Origin: an uncultured bacterium
Lineage (GTDB): Bacteria > Abyssobacteria > SURF-5
Direction of reading: 5' to 3'
NCBI GenBank assembly: GCA_964510165.1
Contig: CAZEBC010000140.1
Span: 1-10,669 of the forward strand
Length of the DNA: 10,669 nt
Under the pieces are notes generated by a model that had not been told where the DNA came from, searched no databases, and worked only from the letters and a program-made list of their open reading frames with translations. Positions 200-10,520 of this stretch are shown here, one piece after another (positions within the stretch are counted from its first letter, which is position 1; the number at the start of each line of letters is the position of its first letter). The position numbers and the translations under genes are program-made.

Positions 200-2563
200 T
201 CAAGAAGGGGTGAGTGTCAGCCGGACCGGACCGTCGGACTGGAGCGAGACGCGGGTTAACCTCTTTCCGGATTTCCATTTCAGCTTCGAGACAGCCCCGA
301 AACTCTTCACGGCCTTCACGTCTCCAATGCCGTGGAAGACGATATCATATTTCCTATTCGAGGATGAGATATTCATTTTGATGCTTCTGCCGCTTCTCGA
401 CGCCTCGAATCTCACCACAACGTTTCCATTACAAAGCGAGAACTCCGCGCGCGTATCCAGGTACATGCGAATCTGCAACTCAGCCCATGACTGCTGGTCC
501 ACAGACTGCGCCTCCGGGCCAAGCGGCAGGATCGAGTCGCCCCGCACAAAGATCGGCATGCTGTCGAGCGGCACATTAAGCTCAAGGAATTTCGGGCCTT
601 CATGCACAGCGCCCTGCCAAAACTCATACCACCTCCCCGGCGGCAGATACACGGTCACATCGCCCGCGTCGTTGAAAACGGGGGCAACAAGCAGCTCGCG
701 TCCGAGCAGGTACTCAAGCTCTTCGGACGGCGCATGCGGGTCGTCGGGGAATTCCAGATACACGGGACGCATCAGCGGCATGCCGGTCTGGCTGGCCTCG
801 TGCGCATATGAGTACAGGTACGGCACGAGCCGGATCCTCAGGAGCGCGAACTTGCGCACGATCTCGACCGCTGCCTTTCCGTACTCCCACGGCTCGCGCG
901 GACTCATCCCGTGGAATCGCGCGATCGGGCTGAGCAGGCCGAACTGCGCCCATCGAATGTATAAGGTAGGTGTCGGCGGCCGGTCGGGCTCGACGGTATT
1001 GACAAACCCGCCGATGTCGTGGCTCCACAGCGCGCCGCCGGACATGGCATAGCTGAGTCCGCCCTTCAACGCGCCCGCCATCCCGGCGTAGCTGCACTGC
1101 GAGTCGCCCGCCCACTGGATCGGATATCTTTGCGAGCCGGGCGCACCCGACCTTCCGAACACCACGGCCTCGCCTTGTTCTTCCTCGATAGCCTCGAAGA
1201 CCGCCTTGTTATAGAGTAGCGGATAGACATTGTGCATCTCGCGGCCGGTCTTGCCGTTATGAAAGATGACGTTCTCGGGAATGCTCTCGCCATAGTCGGT
1301 CTTGAACGCGGCGACACCCTGTCGCAGCAGCCGTTTGTGGATGTTCTTTACCCATTCGACGGCCTCCGGATTCGTATAATCGAAGATGCCCATATCGGCG
1401 CACATCGGATGGGTGGGCTCGGCTACTGAGCCGTCCGGATTCTTCACCAGGTATCCCTTCGTTCTTGCTTCCTCGTAGAAGTCGGTGTGGTCGGGCACGT
1501 ATGGATTCTCCCACAGGCACAGGCGCACATGGTTTTCACCGAGTGTGCGGATAAAGCCCTCGGGGTCGGGATACCGCTCCGTGTTCCACTCGAACTCGCA
1601 GCCCGGCTGTCTTCGCGTGTCCCATGCCTTGAGCCAGGCGGGGTCCACGTTGACGACATCGAGGGGGATATCAAGCGAGCGCATCCGCTTCACGACGGCC
1701 TCGACGGTGGGCCTCTCCATATAGATGCAGCGAGACATCCACACCCCGAACGCCCATTTCGGCGGAACCGCCGGCCTGCCGGTCAGCAGCGTGTAGCCCT
1801 TGAGTATCTCAGCGGGCGTCGCGCCGAGTATGAGGTAGTAATCCATGAGCGGCGAATCCACCCACACGCTGCCAGAGACAGTGGAATACGAACCCAACTC
1901 GAAGATGCTCTTCTCGCCGCAGTTCAAGAAGAAGCCGTAGCCACGGCTGCTCATGAAGAAGGGAATGCTGATGTAGGAAAGCTCGGTCGTGGTCGTGCCG
2001 CTGGTGTCCGCACACCACATTACCGCTCGCTCGCCGCGCTTGTTCACGCTCATGTATTTCGGTCCAAGCCCGAACAGGCATTCATCGGGCTCGAACGAGA
2101 ACGTCTCGTGCGCGCGAACGGCGCCGTCTGCGCTCTCCGAGTATCCGGTCGGATAGGTGACCAGAATCGTGAACCCGCGATCCAGCACTTCCTGTTGGAA
2201 GACCGTCTTGCCGCCTGATGAGACTGACATTTGCCAGGGCGATTTCCGAATGCGCACCGTCACCGCGCCAGCTTTCAGAACGTATGATTCCTTGTCTTCG
2301 GTAAGTCTTGTTCGAACCGGGGGCAGCGCGGGCGTCGAAGTGAACGGGGTCTCATGCTCCACAGCGCCTCCCGCGCCGTTGTATCGAATCCTGACAATCT
2401 GAGGAGTTATCGGCGTCACGACGAACGAAAGCGGCTGGCCGTGTTCGAGAACGGCGTCGAACACAACGCTCCCTGCTTCCTCCCGCGCCCCGCCGCATCT
2501 CACGGCGTAATGATGCATCCGGTCCATATGCGCGAATATTGGGGTGCTATCCGGCTGGAACAT
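200..2563 (-). CDS. Glycoside hydrolase family 31, YicI-like alpha-xylosidase/alpha-glucosidase, ~787 aa, no signal peptide
   Basis: GH31 motifs: PPKWAFGVWMSR, nucleophile motif FKTDYGE (YicI type FKTDFGE), MHNVYP, acid/base QWAGD, WSHDIGGF, YIRWAQFG, GMPLMRP, VYLPPGRW. The start was moved to ATG 2563 because AAGGAGG lies 8 nt upstream of it; the track's TTG at 2581 abuts that RBS. Confidence 0.92.
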   Translation of the reverse strand: MFQPDSTPIFAHMDRMHHYAVRCGGAREEAGSVVFDAVLEHGQPLSFVVTPITPQIVRIRYNGAGGAVEHETPFTSTPALPPVRTRLTEDKESYVLKAGAVTVRIRKSPWQMSVSSGGKTVFQQEVLDRGFTILVTYPTGYSESADGAVRAHETFSFEPDECLFGLGPKYMSVNKRGERAVMWCADTSGTTTTELSYISIPFFMSSRGYGFFLNCGEKSIFELGSYSTVSGSVWVDSPLMDYYLILGATPAEILKGYTLLTGRPAVPPKWAFGVWMSRCIYMERPTVEAVVKRMRSLDIPLDVVNVDPAWLKAWDTRRQPGCEFEWNTERYPDPEGFIRTLGENHVRLCLWENPYVPDHTDFYEEARTKGYLVKNPDGSVAEPTHPMCADMGIFDYTNPEAVEWVKNIHKRLLRQGVAAFKTDYGESIPENVIFHNGKTGREMHNVYPLLYNKAVFEAIEEEQGEAVVFGRSGAPGSQRYPIQWAGDSQCSYAGMAGALKGGLSYAMSGGALWSHDIGGFVNTVEPDRPPTPTLYIRWAQFGLLSPIARFHGMSPREPWEYGKAAVEIVRKFALLRIRLVPYLYSYAHEASQTGMPLMRPVYLEFPDDPHAPSEELEYLLGRELLVAPVFNDAGDVTVYLPPGRWYEFWQGAVHEGPKFLELNVPLDSMPIFVRGDSILPLGPEAQSVDQQSWAELQIRMYLDTRAEFSLCNGNVVVRFEASRSGRSIKMNISSSNRKYDIVFHGIGDVKAVKSFGAVSKLKWKSGKRLTRVSLQSDGPVRLTLTPS

Positions 2564-2590
2564 CGGTGTCGCCTCCTTCAAGGATTTATT

Positions 2591-4069
2591 TCATGAACGC
2601 GTCAGTTTCAGCAGTGTGACTGAATGAGCGGGAAACGCATACTTGAACCTGGATGATGCGCTCGAAAACGATTTCTCGACGGTCCTGACGGCATTCGGTT
2701 TCTCAAAGGAATTCTCTGCGTCCACGCCCGGGCCATTGATCTCGAAGACCGTCGCCGTTTTCTCAGGCTCGAAGCCGATGAGTTCGATTTCGGTCTTGAG
2801 GGCGTCGTCCTTGTGACGATTGATGACGGCGAGGTTCAGGCGGGAACCGGCTTCGTCAATCGTCGCGGAAACATCGAGATGTTGGACGGTCTCCACCGGC
2901 GCGCTCTCGCCAGAGGAGAACAGCGCATTAAACAGCTTTGCCTGAAACGTCGGCGATTCGACGAACGCGTTGAGCGAAACATCCAGGCTGTGGTCACGAT
3001 AAAGCTTCAGCGGGTGATAGATGGTCTGCAGCAACATGCGGTCCTTGCTCGTGGCGATGGGGGCGATCACGTTGACCATTTGCGCCAGATTGGCGAGTGT
3101 GACGCTGGCGCAGTTGCGGTGCATCACATGGATGAACCCGGCCACGGCCAGCGCGTCGGACAGATTGTAGCGCTCTTCCAGTCCCTCGCCGAAGGTGCGG
3201 TACCAGACGTTCCATTCGTCCATCGCTATCTCGGTCCTGGGCGTTTTCTTCTCGGCGAGCGCAACGGTTATCGTGGCGTTGAAGACGTCGATCAATCGCT
3301 GAGCCATAACGGGGGAGGCGACATTGCAGTAATAATCATAATTGCCGACATAGATGTGAAGCGCGATGTAATCCGCAAACCCGGCCAGCTTGTCCAGGAC
3401 CTTAAGATTCCATTCAGGCGTGTCCGATTGAAAGAGGTAGCCGACCGCGACGAGCTTTATGGAGGGGTCCACCCAGCGCATCATCTTGGCGGCCTCAAGC
3501 GCCACCTTCGCATAATCCTCCGCGTTCCTGGCGCATATCTGCCAGAATCCGCCCATCTCGTTGCCAAGTCCCCAATACCGCACGTCGTACGGCTCGGGGT
3601 GGCCGTTCGCTCGGCGCATGTTGGCGTAATACGAATCGTCCGTGCTGTTGCAGTATTCGACCCAGGCCGCCGCCTCCTCCGGCGTGCCCGTGCCCAGGTT
3701 AACGCACAGGAACGGTTCAGTCCCAATGGCGCGGCAGTATTCAATGAACTCGTCAGTGCCGAACCGGTTCGATTCCACCGTTCCCCATGCGAGATCCTTC
3801 TTCCTGGGCCGGTTCTCCTTCGGGCCGACGCCGTCGAGCCAGTGATAGCCGGAGACGAAGTTGCCGCCCGGATAGCGCAGGTTCGGCAGCCGAAGCGATT
3901 TCATCGCCTCGAGCACGTCCTTGCGGAAGCCGCGCTCATCGGACAAGGGAGAACCTTCTTCATAGATTCCGCCGTAAATGCACCGGCCCAGGTGTTCGAT
4001 GAAGCCGCCATAAATGTTGGGGTTGATGGTTCCGATTCTGCGGTCAAGGTCTATCTTTATCTTCGCCAT
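2591..4069 (-). CDS. abfA: Alpha-L-arabinofuranosidase, glycoside hydrolase family 51 (AbfA-like), ~492 aa, no signal peptide
   Basis: GH51 motifs: IYGGFIEHLGRCIYGG, RYPGGNF, acid/base LGNEM, nucleophile DEWNVWY, ANLAQMVNVI, C-terminal FPAHSVT. The start is ATG 4069 (MAKIKID), preceded by GGGAGAG. The track start at 4114 would overlap the upstream SDR. Confidence 0.93.
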   Translation of the reverse strand: MAKIKIDLDRRIGTINPNIYGGFIEHLGRCIYGGIYEEGSPLSDERGFRKDVLEAMKSLRLPNLRYPGGNFVSGYHWLDGVGPKENRPRKKDLAWGTVESNRFGTDEFIEYCRAIGTEPFLCVNLGTGTPEEAAAWVEYCNSTDDSYYANMRRANGHPEPYDVRYWGLGNEMGGFWQICARNAEDYAKVALEAAKMMRWVDPSIKLVAVGYLFQSDTPEWNLKVLDKLAGFADYIALHIYVGNYDYYCNVASPVMAQRLIDVFNATITVALAEKKTPRTEIAMDEWNVWYRTFGEGLEERYNLSDALAVAGFIHVMHRNCASVTLANLAQMVNVIAPIATSKDRMLLQTIYHPLKLYRDHSLDVSLNAFVESPTFQAKLFNALFSSGESAPVETVQHLDVSATIDEAGSRLNLAVINRHKDDALKTEIELIGFEPEKTATVFEINGPGVDAENSFEKPNAVRTVEKSFSSASSRFKYAFPAHSVTLLKLTRS

Positions 4070-4085
4070 TTCATTCTCTCCCGTT

Positions 4086-4853
4086 CTAACCCGCATGCCT
4101 CGCGCCGCCGTCAATGACTATCGTCTCTCCCGTCATGAAGGCCGACGCATCGGAGGCTAGATACAGCGCGGCCCCCACGATGTCATCGGTCTCACCCAGC
4201 CTCGGTATGGGAAAAGCCTTCGAACGTTCTTGAAACAAATCGCTCGTCCAGACCGCCTTGCTCATGTCGGTCTTGATGAAGCCGGGCGCTATTGCGTTCA
4301 CCCGGATGTTGTACGCGCCGAGTTCAGCGGCCAGCACCTGCGTGAGCATGATGAGCGCGGCCTTCGTGACGCAGTACGCGCCCGTCATGGGAGCGGGCCT
4401 CAGCCCGGCGACCGACGCCATGTTGATGACCACACCGCCGTGCTCGCGCATCCATTTGTTGAAGGCGAGTTGGGTGAGGAAGAACACGCCGTCCAGGTTC
4501 ACCTCGAACGTCTTGTCCCACGCGCCCCGCTCGATGTCCATGATGTGGCCGAAATGGGGATTCGTGCCCGCGTTGTTGACCAGGATATCGAGCTTGCCGA
4601 AGCCCCTGAGCGTTTCATCCATGAGGCGCTCGAGTTGATCGGGCTTGCCGGTGTGAGCCGCGACGGCGAGCGAGCGCCGGCCAAGCTTTTTTATTTCGGA
4701 GGCAACGGCCTGGCAGGCGTCCAGCTTACGGCTCGCGACGACGACATCGGCGCCGGCGTTTGCAAACTCCAGCGCGATCGCGCGGCCTATGCCGCGACTG
4801 CCGCCGGTGACGACCGCCACCTTTCCCTCAAGTGAGAAACGCTTGTCGGACAT
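4086..4853 (-). CDS. Classical short-chain dehydrogenase/reductase, DHRS4/carbonyl-reductase-like, probably NADP(H)-preferring, 255 aa
   Basis: TGGSRGIG Rossmann motif, ASRK after beta2, NNAGTNP, NLDG, catalytic Ser (MASVAG), YCVTK, IAPG, C-terminal IDGG. An AGGGGG RBS is present. Confidence 0.9.
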   Translation of the reverse strand: MSDKRFSLEGKVAVVTGGSRGIGRAIALEFANAGADVVVASRKLDACQAVASEIKKLGRRSLAVAAHTGKPDQLERLMDETLRGFGKLDILVNNAGTNPHFGHIMDIERGAWDKTFEVNLDGVFFLTQLAFNKWMREHGGVVINMASVAGLRPAPMTGAYCVTKAALIMLTQVLAAELGAYNIRVNAIAPGFIKTDMSKAVWTSDLFQERSKAFPIPRLGETDDIVGAALYLASDASAFMTGETIVIDGGARHAG

Positions 4854-4907
4854 TGCGTACCCCCTATGGCACTCAACCTGAAAATCGCAAATTCCTGTCG
4901 CGTTTTA

Positions 4908-4952
4908 CCCTCGCCCCAAACCGCTCCCACTGGGAGAGGGAAGGGAGAGGGG
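4908..4952. repeat. BoxC/potential-intrastrand-triplex-like intergenic repeat (single hairpin with C-rich and G-rich tails)
   Basis: CCCTCGCCCCAAACCGCTCCC-ACT-GGGAGAGGGAAGGGAGAGGGG. The core CTCCC-N3-GGGAG is shared with the copies at 5825-5905. Confidence 0.7.
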
Positions 4953-4974
4953 CTTCGGTTGCGGCTGTGCCGAT

Positions 4975-5745
4975 TCACGCCGTGGCGTAGCCGCCGTTGA
5001 CGCTGATGGCCTGGCCGGTGATCCACGAGGCGCGGTCTGAGGCGAGGAAGACGACCAGGTTCGCGATGTCCTTGGGTTCGCCGAGACGGCGCAACGGATA
5101 CGCCTTGACCACCTTCTTCTCGAAGTCTTCCGAGAGCATGCCCTTGACGGCCTCGGTTTTGGTCATGCTGGGGCAGACGGCGTTCACATTGACGCCGTAG
5201 CGGCCTGCCTCCTTCGCAATGGATTTCGTGAACGAGATGATGGCGCCCTTGGCGCCCGCATACACGGCCTGGCGCGGCTCGCCCACCTTGCCCGCGTCCG
5301 AGGCGAGATTGACAATCTTGCCGTAGCCGCGCTCGTACATGCCCTCGATGACGGCCGCCGTGCAGTTGACCGTTCCGTGGTAACAGACCTCGACGACTTT
5401 GCCCCAATACTCATCCCGCTGGCCGCTGTTTTTTTCCTCAACAAACGTGAGGAACGCGGGCAGCTTGGCGGCGTTGTTCACCAATACCTGAACCGGTCCG
5501 AGTTCGGCCTCGACCCGCGTGACCATGGCCTCGACGCTCGCCGGGCCGGTGACATCGGTCTTCACGGCGATGGATTTGACCCCGAGCTTTCGAACTTCTC
5601 CGGCGGCTTTCTGGGCGGTTTCCTCGTCGATCTCGGCGATCGCCACGTGCGCGCCCTCTTCGGCCAGGCTTGCCGCGATGGCCAGGCCGATCCCCCGGCC
5701 GCCGCCCGTCACGATTGCCACTTTATCCTTGAGTTGCAGGTCCAT
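4975..5745 (-). CDS. Classical SDR resembling BadH/FabG-like hydroxyacyl-CoA dehydrogenases, probably NAD(H)-preferring, 256 aa
   Basis: TGGGRGIG, acidic AEID after beta2, NNAA, LASDAGKVG, YAGAK, VCPSMTKT, PLRRLG, SVNGG. An AAGGGAG RBS is present. Confidence 0.88.
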   Translation of the reverse strand: MDLQLKDKVAIVTGGGRGIGLAIAASLAEEGAHVAIAEIDEETAQKAAGEVRKLGVKSIAVKTDVTGPASVEAMVTRVEAELGPVQVLVNNAAKLPAFLTFVEEKNSGQRDEYWGKVVEVCYHGTVNCTAAVIEGMYERGYGKIVNLASDAGKVGEPRQAVYAGAKGAIISFTKSIAKEAGRYGVNVNAVCPSMTKTEAVKGMLSEDFEKKVVKAYPLRRLGEPKDIANLVVFLASDRASWITGQAISVNGGYATA

Positions 5746-5824
5746 TGGGTTATCTCCCTTCCACGTTCAGTAAGGCTTGGATCTTGCGCTTAAACTGAGC
5801 CTTGAGTTTCCGCTGTGTCGTTCT

Positions 5825-5905
5825 CTCTCACCCCAACCCTCTCCCACCGAAAGAGGGCGCCAATCCGGTTGTCCCTCTCCCACCGGGAGAGGGCAGGGTG
5901 AGGGG
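5825..5905. repeat. Inverted pair of BoxC/PIT-like REP elements
   Basis: Unit 1 is CTCTCACCCCAACCCTCTCCC-ACC-GAAAGAGGG (5825-5857). Unit 2 is CCCTCTCCC-ACC-GGGAGAGGG-CAGGGTGAGGGG (5873-5905) and has a perfect 9-bp stem. The two units are near reverse complements. Confidence 0.8.
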
Positions 5906-5921
5906 CATTCCGTGACGCCGG

Positions 5922-6449
5922 TCAGCCCGATTTCTTGCTCGCCTCCTCATACCTCGCCAGCGTGAACAACAAATCCGCCAGGCGGTTGAAATACTGCAAT
6001 ATTTCCGGATTTTTGACCTCGCCCTCGTCGACAAGTTTCACGACTCGGCGTTCGGCCCGGCGCACAATAGAGCGGGCCAGGTCGAGCGCTCCCGAGGCGA
6101 CGGTCTCTCCCGGCGTCACGAATGCTTTAGGCATTTCGAACAGGGTTTCATGGTTTTCGATCAAACGCTCCAGCTTCAGAACGTGCTCCCTCGAGATTCG
6201 GACTTTCAGCCTGCCAGCTTCGTCCGGGAGGGCGGCCAGCTCTGCGCCCACCGTGAAAAGGTCTCTTTGGATGTCGAGCACGATGCCTTTGATCTCTTTG
6301 TCGTTAAGAAGGGCCCGGGCCAGCCCGAGCGCACTATTCGCCTCGTCGACGACTCCATATGCCTCCGGCCGCGGCGAATGTTTGGGGACACTGTGCCCGA
6401 AAAGCAGCCTGGTTGTTCCCGCGTCGCCTTTCTTGTTAAACGATTTCAT
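5922..6449 (-). CDS. ATP:cob(I)alamin adenosyltransferase, PduO/MMAB type, ~175 aa
   Basis: N-terminal KGDAGTT, EAYGVVDEANSALG, IQRDLFTVGAELA, FVTPG, ARSIVRRAERR, YFNRLADLLF. The start is ATG 6449, with GGAGG 11 nt upstream. Confidence 0.9.
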   Translation of the reverse strand: MKSFNKKGDAGTTRLLFGHSVPKHSPRPEAYGVVDEANSALGLARALLNDKEIKGIVLDIQRDLFTVGAELAALPDEAGRLKVRISREHVLKLERLIENHETLFEMPKAFVTPGETVASGALDLARSIVRRAERRVVKLVDEGEVKNPEILQYFNRLADLLFTLARYEEASKKSG

Positions 6450-6539
6450 GACGTGCATTGCCTCCGTAAAGTCGCATGTCACCCGGAAATCAAGGGACAG
6501 GGAGGATAGAGACAAGGTCTCAATGAAAGATCCAGAGCA

Positions 6540-6569
6540 TTTGTATCATTTGGCGTTTGGCCGTGTCAA
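6540..6569 (-). promoter_or_regulatory. Candidate sigma70 promoter for the leftward operon
   Basis: The minus strand reads TTGACA (6569-6564), an 18-nt spacer ending in TGA (extended -10-like), then TACAAA (6545-6540). It lies about 90 nt upstream of the adenosyltransferase start. Confidence 0.45.
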
Positions 6570-6800
6570 GAACATTTTGAGTAATCGCCTTACAATTTTC
6601 GGCGCGCATCTGCTACTCGATGAAACCGGTCGCATGATTACCCTGCCGCTTTTCTTTCGGTTCAGGTGGACAGAGAGGATTCGCACGTGTTCGTTTGTTG
6701 TTTATAAGACCAATCTCTACAGGTGGTTATAGATGGACAATCCTGAGCCCGACGATGGGAGCGAAAACAGGGTCCTTGCCGTGGCATGGGGTGCGTGAAA

Positions 6801-6816
6801 TGGCATGGGCTTTGCT
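6801..6816 (+). promoter_or_regulatory. Sigma54 (RpoN) -24/-12 promoter
   Basis: TGGCATGGGCTTTGCT matches the consensus TGGCACG-N4-TTGCW with exact GG-N10-GC spacing and one mismatch. It lies 71 nt upstream of ATG 6888 in the correct orientation. Confidence 0.75.
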
Positions 6817-6887
6817 CGTTGGTGACCGAATGACTATCGTGCGATGGGTGTGTCTTGATGTGAGGGGAATGACCGAGAGGGAGCTTT

Positions 6888-7817
6888 ATGGAAAAGCCGA
6901 AGATGTTCGTTGCGAAATACTTCGAGGAAATAACGGTATGCGTGGTGCTGGTGAGCGTTATCTGCATCACCTACACAGTTGACGAGAAGATGATGATGCT
7001 CAACTTCTACTACCTGCCGGTATTGATGGCGGGATATTTCATCGGCAAACGAGCATCGGTGCTTGTGGCCATTTTCAGTGTTCTGGCAGTCATGTTCTTC
7101 GCGGTCGTGAAGGCCGACGCGTACGCCGCGGGCAGAGGTCCCGGCTATCTGATAAGCAGCCTGTGCGGGTGGGCCGGTTTTCTGTTGCTGACGAGCGGAG
7201 TCGTCGGCACGCTGTATGAACAAAAGCAGAAGCGGATCGAAGAACTCCAGCAGGCGTATGTCGGCATACTCGAAATACTGGTAAAGTATCTGGAATCAAC
7301 CGACCGCTACACCAAGGGCCATTCACAGCGAGTTGCCGATCTTGCAGCGGATATCGCCATGGAGATGGAGTTGCCGCAGTCGGAGGTTGAGAACATACGC
7401 GTCGCCGCATTGCTGCACGACATCGGCAAGGTGGAAATCAGCGCCAACCTTATCGGCAAGGCCGCCAGCCTGACTCAGGACGAAATGATTCAAGTGGCCC
7501 AGCATACCGAGAAGGGCGCCAGGATTCTGCATTCGGTCGGGAGCGTCCTCAAGGAGGCAATCCCCATCGTGCTTGAGCATCACAAGTATTTCGCTGGCGC
7601 GAACGGTAACGGCAAGAACAACGGGGCCTCGCTCGGCACCAGCATCGTGGCGGTCGCCGACTCCTTCGACGCGATGACCTCGGATCGGCCTTACCGCAAG
7701 GGAATGCAGCCGTGGCAAGCGATGGAGGAACTCAGGCGGTGCAGCGGCGAGCAGTTCGACCCCAAAGTGGTTGATGTCTTCGAATCGGTGCTCAGTCACA
7801 GGCTGGAGACGGTGTAG
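6888..7817 (+). CDS. Membrane-anchored HD-GYP-like metal-dependent phosphohydrolase lacking the GYP motif, 309 aa
   Basis: About four hydrophobic segments in residues 15-108, then a helical linker. These are followed by YTKGHSQRVA, ALLHDIGK, QHTEKG, LEHH and VADSFDAMTSDRPYRKG…FDPKVV. A GAGGGAG RBS is present. Confidence 0.88.
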   Translation: MEKPKMFVAKYFEEITVCVVLVSVICITYTVDEKMMMLNFYYLPVLMAGYFIGKRASVLVAIFSVLAVMFFAVVKADAYAAGRGPGYLISSLCGWAGFLLLTSGVVGTLYEQKQKRIEELQQAYVGILEILVKYLESTDRYTKGHSQRVADLAADIAMEMELPQSEVENIRVAALLHDIGKVEISANLIGKAASLTQDEMIQVAQHTEKGARILHSVGSVLKEAIPIVLEHHKYFAGANGNGKNNGASLGTSIVAVADSFDAMTSDRPYRKGMQPWQAMEELRRCSGEQFDPKVVDVFESVLSHRLETV

Positions 7818-8043: not shown

Positions 8044-9255
8044 ATGAGGAGACGCACATTTATCAAAGTGGGCATGACCGGCCTCGCCTGGATCACGGCG
8101 GGGTCGGTCATTCGTTGCGGGGGGCCGCGTTCGTTTCACCGGCGCCACCTGCCCGAGGGCGAACTCAGGGCATGGCCGCACAAAATGGATGACCCGCCAG
8201 CCGGCGCCCTCCTCGGGTTCGACATGTCCATGGAGGAGGTCGAATTCGAAATGGTGGACAGGATTCCGGTTTACCACTGGGCCTTCAACGATTCCGTGAA
8301 CGGTCTGCGAATACCGGGTTCTGTAATTGTAGCTTTGGAGGGTGACAGGATCGAGATCAACGTGACCAACAATCTTCCCGGCGGCGTCCATTCGTTCGCG
8401 ATCCCTGGCGTGGTGCAGAGCCCGATCATCGCGAAGGGTCAGACTGTGAGGGTGGCATTCGCCGCGCCTCGTGCCGGCACCTACATATACCTGGACCCCG
8501 AGAACGCGCCGATGAACCGGGTGATGGGACTCAACGGAGTCCTGGTGGTTCTGCCGGACCCGCAAAGGAGCAACACGCCGTACAGCGACAACACGCCGGC
8601 TGTCCAACAACTGTTTGATATGTTGGGCACAACCGAGATTTTCCCTGGCGACCCGTGGGCGCTCGAAAAGCGTGAGTGGCTATGGGTGTTCCATGGTCTG
8701 GATTCCAGCAAGAATGAACTGGTCAGGCGGAATCCGGAGTTGACGGCGGAGGAGTTCTTGGACGGCGCCCTGACCGATTATCACTTGATCAGCGGCAAGA
8801 GCGGGTTTTTCGCCGCTCATGATCCCAATATCTTCCCGCATGGCAACATCGGGCAGCCCGCGTTGATCCGGTCGGTGGGCACGGGACTGGTTACGCAATC
8901 GCCGCATATCCACGGGAATCACGTGTATCAGGTTGCGGTGGACGGCGTGGTGCAGGACAATCCTTTCTCCCTTGATACCTGGACAGTCAGGCCGATGAGC
9001 CGGGTGGACGTGCTGCTGCCGTTCGAGACGCCGCCCGACGCGCATCCGTGGCCGCCGAGCAACATACGTGAGTTCCCGATGCCGTTCACGATGCATTGCC
9101 ACATTGAGATGTCGCAGACTGCCGCGGGCGGCAACTATCCGCAAGGATCCGTTACCGACTGGGAAATCACAAGCCCGCAGGTGGGTGGTCCCGAGGCGCC
9201 CGAAGAGGAGTTCCCATTCTTCCGTGGCATGGACCCGGACCTGTTCAGGGCATAG
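8044..9255 (+). CDS. Two-domain multicopper-oxidase-like protein A, Tat signal, copper histidines only in domain 2, ~403 aa
   Basis: MRRRTFIK followed by a hydrophobic stretch (twin-arginine signal). Domain 1 is cupredoxin-like (IPGSVIVALEGDRIEINVTNNL…AGTYIYLDP…MGLNGVLVV). Domain 2 has SPHIHGNH (8905-8922) and MHCH (9091-9102). GGAGG lies 8 nt before ATG 8044. Confidence 0.85.
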   Translation: MRRRTFIKVGMTGLAWITAGSVIRCGGPRSFHRRHLPEGELRAWPHKMDDPPAGALLGFDMSMEEVEFEMVDRIPVYHWAFNDSVNGLRIPGSVIVALEGDRIEINVTNNLPGGVHSFAIPGVVQSPIIAKGQTVRVAFAAPRAGTYIYLDPENAPMNRVMGLNGVLVVLPDPQRSNTPYSDNTPAVQQLFDMLGTTEIFPGDPWALEKREWLWVFHGLDSSKNELVRRNPELTAEEFLDGALTDYHLISGKSGFFAAHDPNIFPHGNIGQPALIRSVGTGLVTQSPHIHGNHVYQVAVDGVVQDNPFSLDTWTVRPMSRVDVLLPFETPPDAHPWPPSNIREFPMPFTMHCHIEMSQTAAGGNYPQGSVTDWEITSPQVGGPEAPEEEFPFFRGMDPDLFRA

Positions 9256-9311
9256 GGGGCGATGCCAAGTAGGGGCGCACGGCGTGCGCTCTTTTGGAAA
9301 GGAGCAACACC

Positions 9312-10520
9312 ATGGGCGCAAGACAGAATCAATCCCCGGGAGCGGGGCTGCCCCGCATACCGCGTGATCTGGGCAGGCCCTTCGATCCGGAGCACATAAT
9401 GTTCGAGGGGGTCCGCGGCCCTGTAACCGAGCAGACGATGTTTGACAGATTCGCGTGCGATATGCCGAACGAAAGCCCGGCGACACCGGACCGCGTCGAA
9501 CCGGACGAAGTGCACGAGCGGGAGTTCTTCGAGGAAAATCTTGCGTTGGGCGGCGAGGGCGGCCCTGTCGTACGAATCTTCGGATTCAAGATTCCTGGCC
9601 AGCCCGCCGCATTCCCGAACCCCACGCTCCGCTTTGTCGAGGGCAATGTCGTGCACTCCGTCGTTAAGGTTGCGAAGAACACGCATACCATTCATCACCA
9701 CGGCATTGAACCAACGAACTTCAACGACGGCGTAGGCCATACGGCCTTCGAGGTCAATTCCGAGTACACGTATCAGTTTCGGCCCGCGATCGCGGGTACG
9801 TACTTATACCACTGTCACAAGAACACCGTGTTGCACTTCGAGATGGGGATGTACGGTTTCATGATCGTGGACCCGCGCAAACCGGCGGGCACGCGGGGAC
9901 CCGAGGCGCCGTATCGAGATGGGGGCCCCGGCTTTGTGCGCAGGATGAACGACATCGTGCCTTACGACGTCGAGGCGTTGTGGGCGGTGGACGAGATAGA
10001 CACCCGGTTCCACACCCTCGATCATCAGGCCGGGCAGGCCTGCCCGTTCTTCAATGTTGATGAAAACGGGGAACCGACCGGCGCGACAAACCCGAGGATG
10101 AACGATTTCAGGCCGGACATCTTTGTGATCTCGGGGATTCCCATCAATAACTTCGATCCGAAGGCGACCGACCGCCAGCCCATCACTCACCCGAATGTCG
10201 CCGTGACGATGGGTGTGGGGCAGACACTGCTCATCCGTTTGCTCAACGCCGGCTACACTATACAAAGGTATACGCTCGGGCTGGACGCCGAGGTCATTGA
10301 CGTAGACGGCAGGCCGTTGGGGCACGCGCCGGAGAGTGCGATGACCCGCCCGTTTGTGATCCCGGCGAACACGCCGTTCGAGCTTTCAACCGCCCGGCGG
10401 TACACGATGCTGGTCAGGCCGACCCAACCGGGCGTGTTCCACTTCAAGGCGGAGCACACCGACTGGCACGAGTTCAAGGGAGTGATCGGGGTAACTGAGA
10501 CGATAATAGCGGTGAGGTGA
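9312..10520 (+). CDS. Two-domain multicopper-oxidase-like protein B, type-1 site and histidine pairs only in domain 1, no signal peptide, ~402 aa
   Basis: FPNPTLRFVEG, HTIHHHG (9684-9704), GTYLYHCHKNTVLHFEMGMYG (HCH at 9810-9818). Domain 2 (LLIRLLNAGY…VIDVDGRP…RRYTMLVRP…PGVFHF) has no HxH or HCH. AAAGGAG lies 7 nt before ATG 9312. Confidence 0.88.
   Translation: MGARQNQSPGAGLPRIPRDLGRPFDPEHIMFEGVRGPVTEQTMFDRFACDMPNESPATPDRVEPDEVHEREFFEENLALGGEGGPVVRIFGFKIPGQPAAFPNPTLRFVEGNVVHSVVKVAKNTHTIHHHGIEPTNFNDGVGHTAFEVNSEYTYQFRPAIAGTYLYHCHKNTVLHFEMGMYGFMIVDPRKPAGTRGPEAPYRDGGPGFVRRMNDIVPYDVEALWAVDEIDTRFHTLDHQAGQACPFFNVDENGEPTGATNPRMNDFRPDIFVISGIPINNFDPKATDRQPITHPNVAVTMGVGQTLLIRLLNAGYTIQRYTLGLDAEVIDVDGRPLGHAPESAMTRPFVIPANTPFELSTARRYTMLVRPTQPGVFHFKAEHTDWHEFKGVIGVTETIIAVR

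Follow-up and report, generated by a model that had tools for sequence, protein, structure and literature searches.

The stretch of DNA analysed here, referred to as the window, is the whole of a 10,669-bp contig (C140) in the 4.17-Mb draft genome (G000, estimated 97% complete) of an uncultured bacterium of the Abyssobacteria. Two co-directional genes, A and B, lie at its 3' end, where the contig terminates 149 nucleotides (nt) past B, and each encodes a two-domain protein of the multicopper oxidase (MCO) type (Table 1). The ATG of gene A has the Shine-Dalgarno sequence AAGGGAGG upstream and its stop codon TAG is at 9253-9255; gene B likely starts at the ATG at 9312, 7 nt past GGAAAGGAG, rather than at the TTG at 9294. 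To our knowledge, every characterised MCO has the full copper-ligand set in one polypeptide, be it a three- or six-domain chain or one of the identical two-domain chains of a trimer. An earlier note on this DNA, made from the letters alone, had pointed out that the ligands are split in complementary fashion over the two proteins here, and had proposed that A and B arose by duplication and form an obligate heteromeric oxidase. Our analysis confirms the observation, and the heteromer interpretation is supported by comparative genomics and modelling.

Copper ligands divided over two proteins

Both proteins match the Pfam family Cu-oxidase_3 above its cut-off (A with 30.9 bits over residues 86-172, B with 47.8 bits), and domain 1 of B matches Cu-oxidase_2 as well. 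Matches to the NCBIfam models for NirK, CopA, ascorbate oxidase and CueO are all far below threshold, and thus no curated family covers A or B; for the NirK equivalog TIGR02376, whose cut-off is 296.3, A scores 48.0 bits and B 25.1, which places neither protein in NirK. Type-C two-domain MCOs are known as homotrimers of identical chains with three clusters. Two of them, the blue copper oxidase of Nitrosomonas europaea (3g5w) and the metagenomic mgLAC (2zwn), are the best or near-best sequence matches of A and B, the other nearest solved structures being Nitrosopumilus 9cck and copper nitrite reductases. They resemble the proposed A-B enzyme in that a chain is made of two cupredoxin domains, blue copper belongs to domain 1 and the cluster forms between domains 1 and 2 of different chains. 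In type-C enzymes, however, all twelve ligands are present on every chain, whereas in A and B they are divided over two chains, with an implied 1:1 ratio, one cluster and an export signal on only one chain.

Every motif quoted in the earlier note is present and falls at a canonical ligand position, as confirmed by alignment to 2zwn and by an alignment of the A and B profiles. Protein A carries VHSFAIPG, GTYIYLDP, SPHIHGNH and MHCHIEMSQ. Its domain 1 has H116-S-F-A-I-P-G at the position of HxxHxHG and L150-D151-P152 at the position of HCH, while in domain 2 H288-I-H290 and H351-C-H353 align with the HSH and HDH of 2zwn. Protein B carries HTIHHHG, YHCHKNTVLHFEMGM, YTIQRYTLG and GVFHFKAE, and its domain 1, with the spacing H167-C168-H169-x5-H175-x4-M180, holds the residues of a full blue-copper site together with two HxH pairs; domain 2 of B lacks histidine at the matching positions. 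The type-1 copper ligand set is therefore complete in B (H125, C168, H175, M180) and incomplete in A, and the two-domain layout with blue copper in domain 1 applies to B and not to A, whose domain 1 keeps the histidine equivalent H116 only. The eight cluster histidines (four HxH pairs) occur together in neither polypeptide; domain 1 of B and domain 2 of A supply exactly one complete set across the pair.

The profiles of A and B align with each other at a probability of 99.7% (E 1.7e-26) over 230 collinear columns, and linker motifs are common to both. In this alignment A H116 matches B H125, A A119/P121 match B H128/H130, and A L150-D151-P152 match B H167-C168-H169. Because the profiles are collinear and the linker motifs shared, tandem duplication of one two-domain ancestor fits, as had been proposed.

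For the conservation analysis we sampled 78 A-type and 83 B-type sequences from the same genome and 80 genome loci spanning Geobacter, Desulfuromonadales, Brocadia, Nitrospirae, Acidobacteriota, many Alphaproteobacteria, Actinomycetota, Thiogranum, Chloroflexi and Planctomycetota. More than 1,100 sequences of a large protein collection are homologous to B at E <= 1e-5; those that are named at all are mostly 'multicopper oxidase domain-containing protein' or 'FtsP/CotA-like multicopper oxidase'. The complementary ligand split is kept throughout the sampled sequences and many phyla, and is not a chance pattern. B residues H125, H128, H167, C168, H169 and H175 are each present in 83/83 sequences and H130 in 82/83; position 180 is Met in 62 and Leu in 21. 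The corresponding figures for A are 78/78 (H288), 77/78 (H290) and 76/78 (both H351 and H353). No conserved HxH pair was found in domain 1 of A or domain 2 of B among all of these sequences.

Other positions of A are conserved in part. The middle residue of its second HxH is Cys in 47 of the 78 sequences, and the residue three ahead of the first domain-2 HxH is His in 67, with Gln in the protein of the window. Most A proteins thus keep a vestige of a second blue-copper site, as this His and Cys are retained without the second His or the Met. At the former blue-copper and cluster positions of A domain 1, H116 is found in 61/78, position 151 is Asp in 66/78 and Glu in 11/78, and R159 is present in 77/78. 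A further conserved residue of B is C49 (nt ~9456-9458) in the motif FxxFxC upstream of domain 1, which is Cys in ~90% of B sequences; residues 47-49 belong to the modelled interface described below.

Pairing, natural fusions and export signals

Gene A lies directly upstream of gene B on the same strand in 74 of the 80 B-centred genome loci. A 75th locus (L086) has a frameshifted A, and the remaining five are cut at a contig edge, so that A is upstream in 75/75 assessable cases. We also collected 80 A-centred metagenome loci, 66 of which have at least 300 nt downstream. B follows A in 66/66: 63 have B, one is an in-frame A-B fusion (L114), and two have N-terminal fragments of B detected by tblastn (L152, E 1.6e-21; L094, E 3e-8). 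The consistent adjacency with the same motif losses that the earlier note had asked of homologues is thus found in both directions.

The genome of the window harbors three A-B pairs (on C140, C143 and C239) with the same motif pattern and no unpaired copy, besides one unrelated MCO on C6; Pfam scans identified no third MCO-like gene beyond these. The two additional pairs have some peculiarities of their own. On C143, A' has HDH in place of HCH and a C-terminal extension of ~130 amino acids (aa), and B' is followed by a 985-aa open reading frame (ORF) with two CxxCH motifs. On C239, Leu replaces Met at the axial blue-copper position of B'', and A'' includes a masked run of N.

Of the 11 species-level genomes covered for the phylum of this bacterium, two have both A and B (3+3 and 1+1 copies) and the other nine neither, a patchy distribution that suggests possible horizontal acquisition of the pair. 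In the order of G014, the Geobacter metagenome-assembled genome behind locus L027, A was found in 17/151 genomes and B in 16/151, and the same 16 genomes have both in equal copy numbers. Pairwise distances of A and B are correlated (Mantel r 0.72, reached by 0/999 permutations), a result that speaks for co-inheritance only.

Natural fusions connect the two proteins directly. All 5 'longer' A homologues (707-934 aa) are A-then-B fusions with an N-terminal signal of the twin-arginine translocation (Tat) pathway and the same motif split, and L114 and L137 are also fused. A search with a fusion as query returned 268 cluster representatives at E <= 1e-30, the best 150 of which comprise 65 A-type, 80 B-type and 5 fused sequences. 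In 16/74 loci, A and B are in frame with each other and separated by only one stop codon, which explains how fusions come about. Single-chain A-B fusions fix the ratio of the two halves at 1:1.

The signal at the N-terminus of A in the window (MRRRTFIKVGMTGLAWITAGSVIRCGG; the protein begins MRRRTFIKVGMTGLAWITAG) has counterparts throughout the family. A strict Tat pattern is passed by 70/78 A sequences. The eight that fail it comprise three truncated by a contig end, one with masked bases and four that have the twin arginines with a weaker hydrophobic region. R3 and R4 are invariant in the A-family alignment. No signal-like region was found in B after any plausible start across the B family, whose N-terminal arm has the consensus M-x-I/L-P-I-I-P/S-R-G/D. 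Some B proteins end in three cell-wall-binding (CWB2) domains or in Ig-like surface domains, yet are signal-less and start with MPIKTIPRG... or MPIPIIPRG... Because they carry surface domains and no signal, these variants must get out of the cytoplasm by some means other than their own signal. As we infer from this distribution, export of B bound to A via Tat would be the simplest route.

An export signal on only one subunit, with a signal-less partner that is nevertheless extracytoplasmic, is the hallmark of Tat hitch-hiking, and A (twin arginines) and B (no signal, with the CWB2 variants) display this arrangement. Hydrogenase small and large subunits are one such pair. In a passage of PMC3578206, NxrA/NxrB are discussed as another, where the signal is on one subunit and the partner without a signal is presumed to cross the membrane attached to it, as proposed here for A and B. 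These pairs are molybdo- or Ni-Fe enzymes, whereas A-B is a putative copper enzyme, and the passage, which concerns NxrAB, was not accepted as a precedent for an MCO. A full-text literature search found no description of an MCO exported as a Tat hitch-hiker.

Modelled interface and competing readings

The complex was modelled with A residues 30-403 and B, using alignments of 70 and 69 rows, in three runs with three controls. The interface score ipSAE was 0.93, 0.94 and 0.95 (median 0.94), and the best of the three controls reached 0.00. The mark used for this score is attained by 116/157 solved complexes and 2/215 mismatched pairs, counts that apply roughly since our alignments were self-built. 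Contact agreement between the runs is 85% or more, and the partner has a per-residue confidence (pLDDT) of at least 88. In the modelled interface, the His-bearing surfaces face each other (A 288, 290-293 and 353-367 against B 128, 130-139, 155-160 and 171-177). A second part joins the two domains 2 (A 283-286, 293 and 306-314 against B 315-317, 331-334, 357-362 and 385-388), where the invariant B D332 touches the invariant A H293 and A 311-312, and a third joins A domain 1 (64-75) to the N-terminal arm of B (12-24). Domain 2 of B thus packs mainly on domain 2 of A in the model, and A domain 1 holds the arm. A pass of this kind speaks for likeness and not for binding.

We also folded the natural 707-aa fusion P0125 with AlphaFold2 on a 12-row alignment of fusions only. 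An alternative MAFFT alignment, with the fusion first and separate A and B rows, was discarded as its A rows stacked on the B half. The fold has a global confidence score (pTM) of 0.81 and a mean pLDDT of 74. In Foldseek it matched six-domain chains first (ceruloplasmin, MnxG and factors V/VIII, with query TM-scores, TMq, of 0.50-0.56), and three-domain laccases at ~0.31. By VIA-align, P0125 29-707 superposes on ceruloplasmin 1-697 (Z 21.6, root-mean-square deviation 4.3 A, 506 aligned residues). The B half alone (~401-707) matched two-domain MCO and NirK chains (Z 22-25); the A half was covered solely within the ceruloplasmin superposition. As modelled, A-B would occupy four consecutive positions of a six-domain ring, in the manner of two neighbouring protomers of a two-domain MCO trimer.

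Ceruloplasmin-type proteins have several cupredoxin domains, some of which lack cluster ligands, and a single trinuclear site between two of them. Over its whole length, the model of the A-B fusion is structurally closest to ceruloplasmin and other six-domain proteins of the MCO fold (4enz, 1kcw; MnxG 9bxa). These differ in being one six-domain chain, whereas A-B has four domains on two chains, or on one where the genes are fused, and sequence identity is only 11-15%.

We consider it likely that A and B combine in a 1:1 ratio into a heteromeric MCO of four domains, that its single trinuclear copper site lies where B domain 1 meets A domain 2, and that B is exported by Tat hitch-hiking. The obligate heteromer is supported by two-way synteny, equal genome copy numbers, natural fusions, a signal on A only and the complex model. 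B would be the redox subunit, with type-1 copper in domain 1. This domain would also give half of the cluster ligands (H128, H130, H167, H169), and its His-Cys-His wire would join the cluster to the blue copper. The other four cluster histidines (H288, H290, H351, H353) would come from domain 2 of A, which would also bring the sole export signal. The chains would assemble 1:1 into a four-domain unit, with B riding the Tat signal of A to the periplasm or cell surface. By analogy with known MCOs, single electrons from the substrate would presumably enter at the blue copper of B, and O2 would be reduced to water at the interface cluster.

Some results weigh against this assignment. The two His sets, which the earlier note expected to meet in a complex model, do come into contact in the model, but A H351 and B H167/H169 are outside the listed contacts. 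Since solved homotrimeric two-domain MCOs and nitrite reductases use the same interface of domains 1 and 2, the complex pass may partly be memory of these structures. Conservation of the interface is modestly above that of the rest (A 0.61 vs 0.53, p 0.013; B 0.55 vs 0.49, p 0.058). The A protein of the window is without His at 164 and 285, both kept by most A proteins. G156 has A without B at the threshold used, the sole such genome of 151 and one whose contig edge was left unexamined, and in L094 a gap of ~435 nt precedes the weak B match. The fusion model fills four of six ceruloplasmin-like ring positions, so that a further partner or other stoichiometry is conceivable.

Such a closed six-domain ring, made as A2B, AB2 or AB with a third two-domain subunit and having one functional trinuclear site per ring, is in our view unlikely. 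It would account for the two positions left empty when the fusion is superposed on ceruloplasmin domains 1-4, and the solved two-domain MCOs and NirKs near A and B are all deposited as multi-chain entries. The single-chain fusions nevertheless set a 1:1 ratio, and a source for the extra subunit is wanting: besides the Pfam scans of the genome of the window, MCO-like ORFs in addition to the pair are found in three loci only (L049 and L084 in the B-centred 80, L118 in the A-centred 80), where they look like second pairs or weak matches. The type-C arrangement of self-sufficient chains with three clusters likewise does not describe A and B, as the ligand set is incomplete in each chain and the fusions and models point to 1:1; for the same reason, the trimer of the small-laccase (SLAC) type envisaged in the earlier note is not supported.

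A smaller chance still goes to nitrogen-oxide chemistry at the interface copper site, by a nitrite reductase or hydroxylamine oxidiser comparable to NirK or Nmar_1354, in place of O2 reduction. Nmar_1354 of Nitrosopumilus maritimus (9cck) is the best solved sequence match of B (E 3e-14). According to PMC11761707, its core is that of a two-domain MCO, in which the blue copper is wired to a trinuclear site at an interface, and the protein consumes NH2OH; the title of that paper refers to enzymatic nitroxyl. Both NirK-like chains and type-C MCOs are matched by the A profile, and the pair is found in three Brocadia-type anammox loci (L011, L012, L024). On the other hand, the eight MCO-type cluster histidines are conserved in the family, compared with the three-His type-2 site of NirK, and the NirK model is missed by a wide margin (48 and 25 bits against 296). 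The pair also occurs in many non-nitrogen-cycling lineages, and neighbour clustering of 80 loci found no recurring nitrogen-cycle genes beside it.

That A and B act separately, with A a copper-poor exported scaffold like FtsP/SufI, B a cytoplasmic blue-copper protein and their adjacency due to tandem duplication only, is very improbable: the two are paralogues, and FtsP/SufI shows that the MCO fold can lose copper and gain another role, but the conserved ligands are exactly complementary, and the synteny, copy numbers, fusions, signal-less B variants with cell-wall-binding domains and strong complex model all speak against it, as does purifying selection on the domain-2 histidines of A, unexpected in a metal-free protein. 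FtsP/SufI (2uxt), a Tat-exported protein of the MCO fold and one of the structural matches, has lost all copper sites and has a copper-free function; in A, by contrast, four cluster histidines are strictly conserved, and the gene always comes with B.

Full-text search found no published heteromeric or split two-domain MCO, with most subscription journals outside its coverage. Besides the NxrAB passage, two candidates for a precedent were rejected. The 'heterotrimer' of PMC11761707 is a single protein with or without a proteolysed domain: each chain of Nmar_1354 is complete, and one has lost an extra cupredoxin domain to proteolysis, so two genes are not involved. The MCO of bioRxiv 10.64898/2026.07.28.741245 is a complete enzyme of type B that carries a fused HAO domain.

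Genomic surroundings and significance

Neighbour clustering of 80 loci revealed no universal third component besides the A-B pair, only associations in subsets. Two-component regulators are near the pair in 22/80 loci. The SCO1/SenC copper-chaperone family is present in 19/80, with 16/20 of its ORFs downstream of B on the same strand, which fits a copper enzyme assembled outside the cytoplasm. A protein that combines Big_5 with a di-haem CCP/MauG-type part occurs in 8/80 loci, including the three of Brocadia. Eight alphaproteobacterial loci (L036, L037, L039, L044, L046, L050, L052, L060) have an animal-haem-peroxidase/RTX protein and type II secretion genes. This peroxidase with RTX architecture, which we take to be that of MopA-type manganese-oxidising peroxidases, hints by analogy at a metal-oxidation context for the pair in that clade.

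Within the window, the spacer between A and B contains a GC-rich stem-loop with a 9-bp stem followed by UCUUUU, just ahead of the ribosome-binding site of B. The spacer RNA folds at -21.7 kcal/mol (z -1.8), and 13/200 shuffles fold equally well. A terminator was considered and rejected, as a consensus scan made no terminator-like call and the z of the fold is merely -1.8; the stem-loop might influence how much A is made relative to B or how stable the mRNA is, or be without meaning. The other genes of the contig (200-7817) have no copper link. Between the second short-chain dehydrogenase gene and the cobalamin adenosyltransferase gene lies a GC-rich repeat of ~85 bp (~5815-5910), one frame of which reads ...PSPTGRGQGEG... 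It has 121 blastn matches at 75-97% identity scattered over many contigs of this genome in either orientation, also beside the MCO pairs on C143 and C239, and from its sequence it looks like an intergenic element of the repetitive extragenic palindromic (REP) or miniature inverted-repeat transposable element (MITE) kind.

Table 1. Features of the window (C140) and the additional A-B pairs of the same genome
Feature	Position	Strand	Basis
GH31 glycosidase	200-2581	-	
Alpha-L-arabinofuranosidase	2591-4114	-	
Short-chain dehydrogenase, first of two	4086-4853	-	
Short-chain dehydrogenase, second of two	4975-5745	-	
PduO-type cobalamin adenosyltransferase	5922-6515	-	
Membrane-anchored HD_5/HD-domain protein	6888-7817	+	
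Gene A, putative Tat-signal subunit, two cupredoxin domains, 403 aa	8044-9255	+	ORF, Pfam, nearest solved chains 2zwn and 3g5w
A, predicted Tat signal peptide	8044-8124	+	Twin-arginine motif and hydrophobic stretch
A domain 1 (residues ~58-174), degenerate, without HxH pairs	8215-8565	+	Alignments
A domain 2 (residues ~238-371), four putative cluster histidines	8755-9156	+	Aligned to domain 2 of 2zwn and 3g5w
A H288-I-H290, first domain-2 HxH	8905-8913	+	Conservation; both in modelled interface
A H351-C-H353, second domain-2 HxH	9094-9102	+	Conservation; H353 and conserved loop 353-367 in modelled interface
A-B spacer, 56 nt, GC-rich stem-loop (~9272-9292) and B ribosome-binding site GGAAAGGAG (9296-9304)	9256-9311	+	Sequence
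Gene B, signal-less putative catalytic subunit, two cupredoxin domains, 402 aa	9312-10520	+	ORF, Pfam, nearest solved chains 9cck, 2zwn and 3g5w
B N-terminal arm (residues 12-24, PRIPRDLGRPF), family motif I-P/S-R-G/D	9345-9383	+	Conserved; contacts A 64-75 in model
B H125-T-I-H128-H-H130, putative blue-copper His and first HxH	9684-9701	+	Conservation; H128 and H130 in modelled interface
B H167-C168-H169...H175...M180, second HxH around putative blue-copper Cys, then blue-copper His and axial Met	9810-9851	+	Conservation
B domain 2 (residues ~265-402), without conserved His at motif positions	10100-10517	+	Y315 and D332, both invariant, point to A domain 2 in model
Second pair, on C143	A' 4623-6203, B' 6224-7525		
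Third pair, on C239	A'' 3960-5252, B'' 2445-3956	-	

A more speculative view, which we regard as doubtful, is that the pair is a living intermediate in MCO evolution: an obligate two-chain, four-domain 'open-ring' oxidase in which duplication and complementary loss left a single heteromeric cluster. The vestigial half-sites of A domain 1 (His116, Asp151, Arg159) and B domain 2 would then have been freed as a new substrate- or metal-binding surface, and in Brocadia-type anammox bacteria the pair could be an unrecognised nitrogen-oxide or metal redox enzyme.

If the proposed 1:1 heteromer is correct, this textbook class of enzymes would gain a new quaternary architecture, with a cluster that can form solely where the products of two different genes meet, in a family that is widespread in genome records of Geobacter, Brocadia, Nitrospirae, alphaproteobacteria, actinobacteria and others. 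It would also offer a natural example of the step of duplication and complementary loss that is assumed in models of evolution from two-domain proteins to laccases and ceruloplasmin, and would extend Tat hitch-hiking to a copper enzyme. Under the current label 'multicopper oxidase domain-containing protein', it would go unnoticed that neither gene suffices by itself, which is relevant to single-gene expression of such genes and to counts of 'laccases' in metagenomes.

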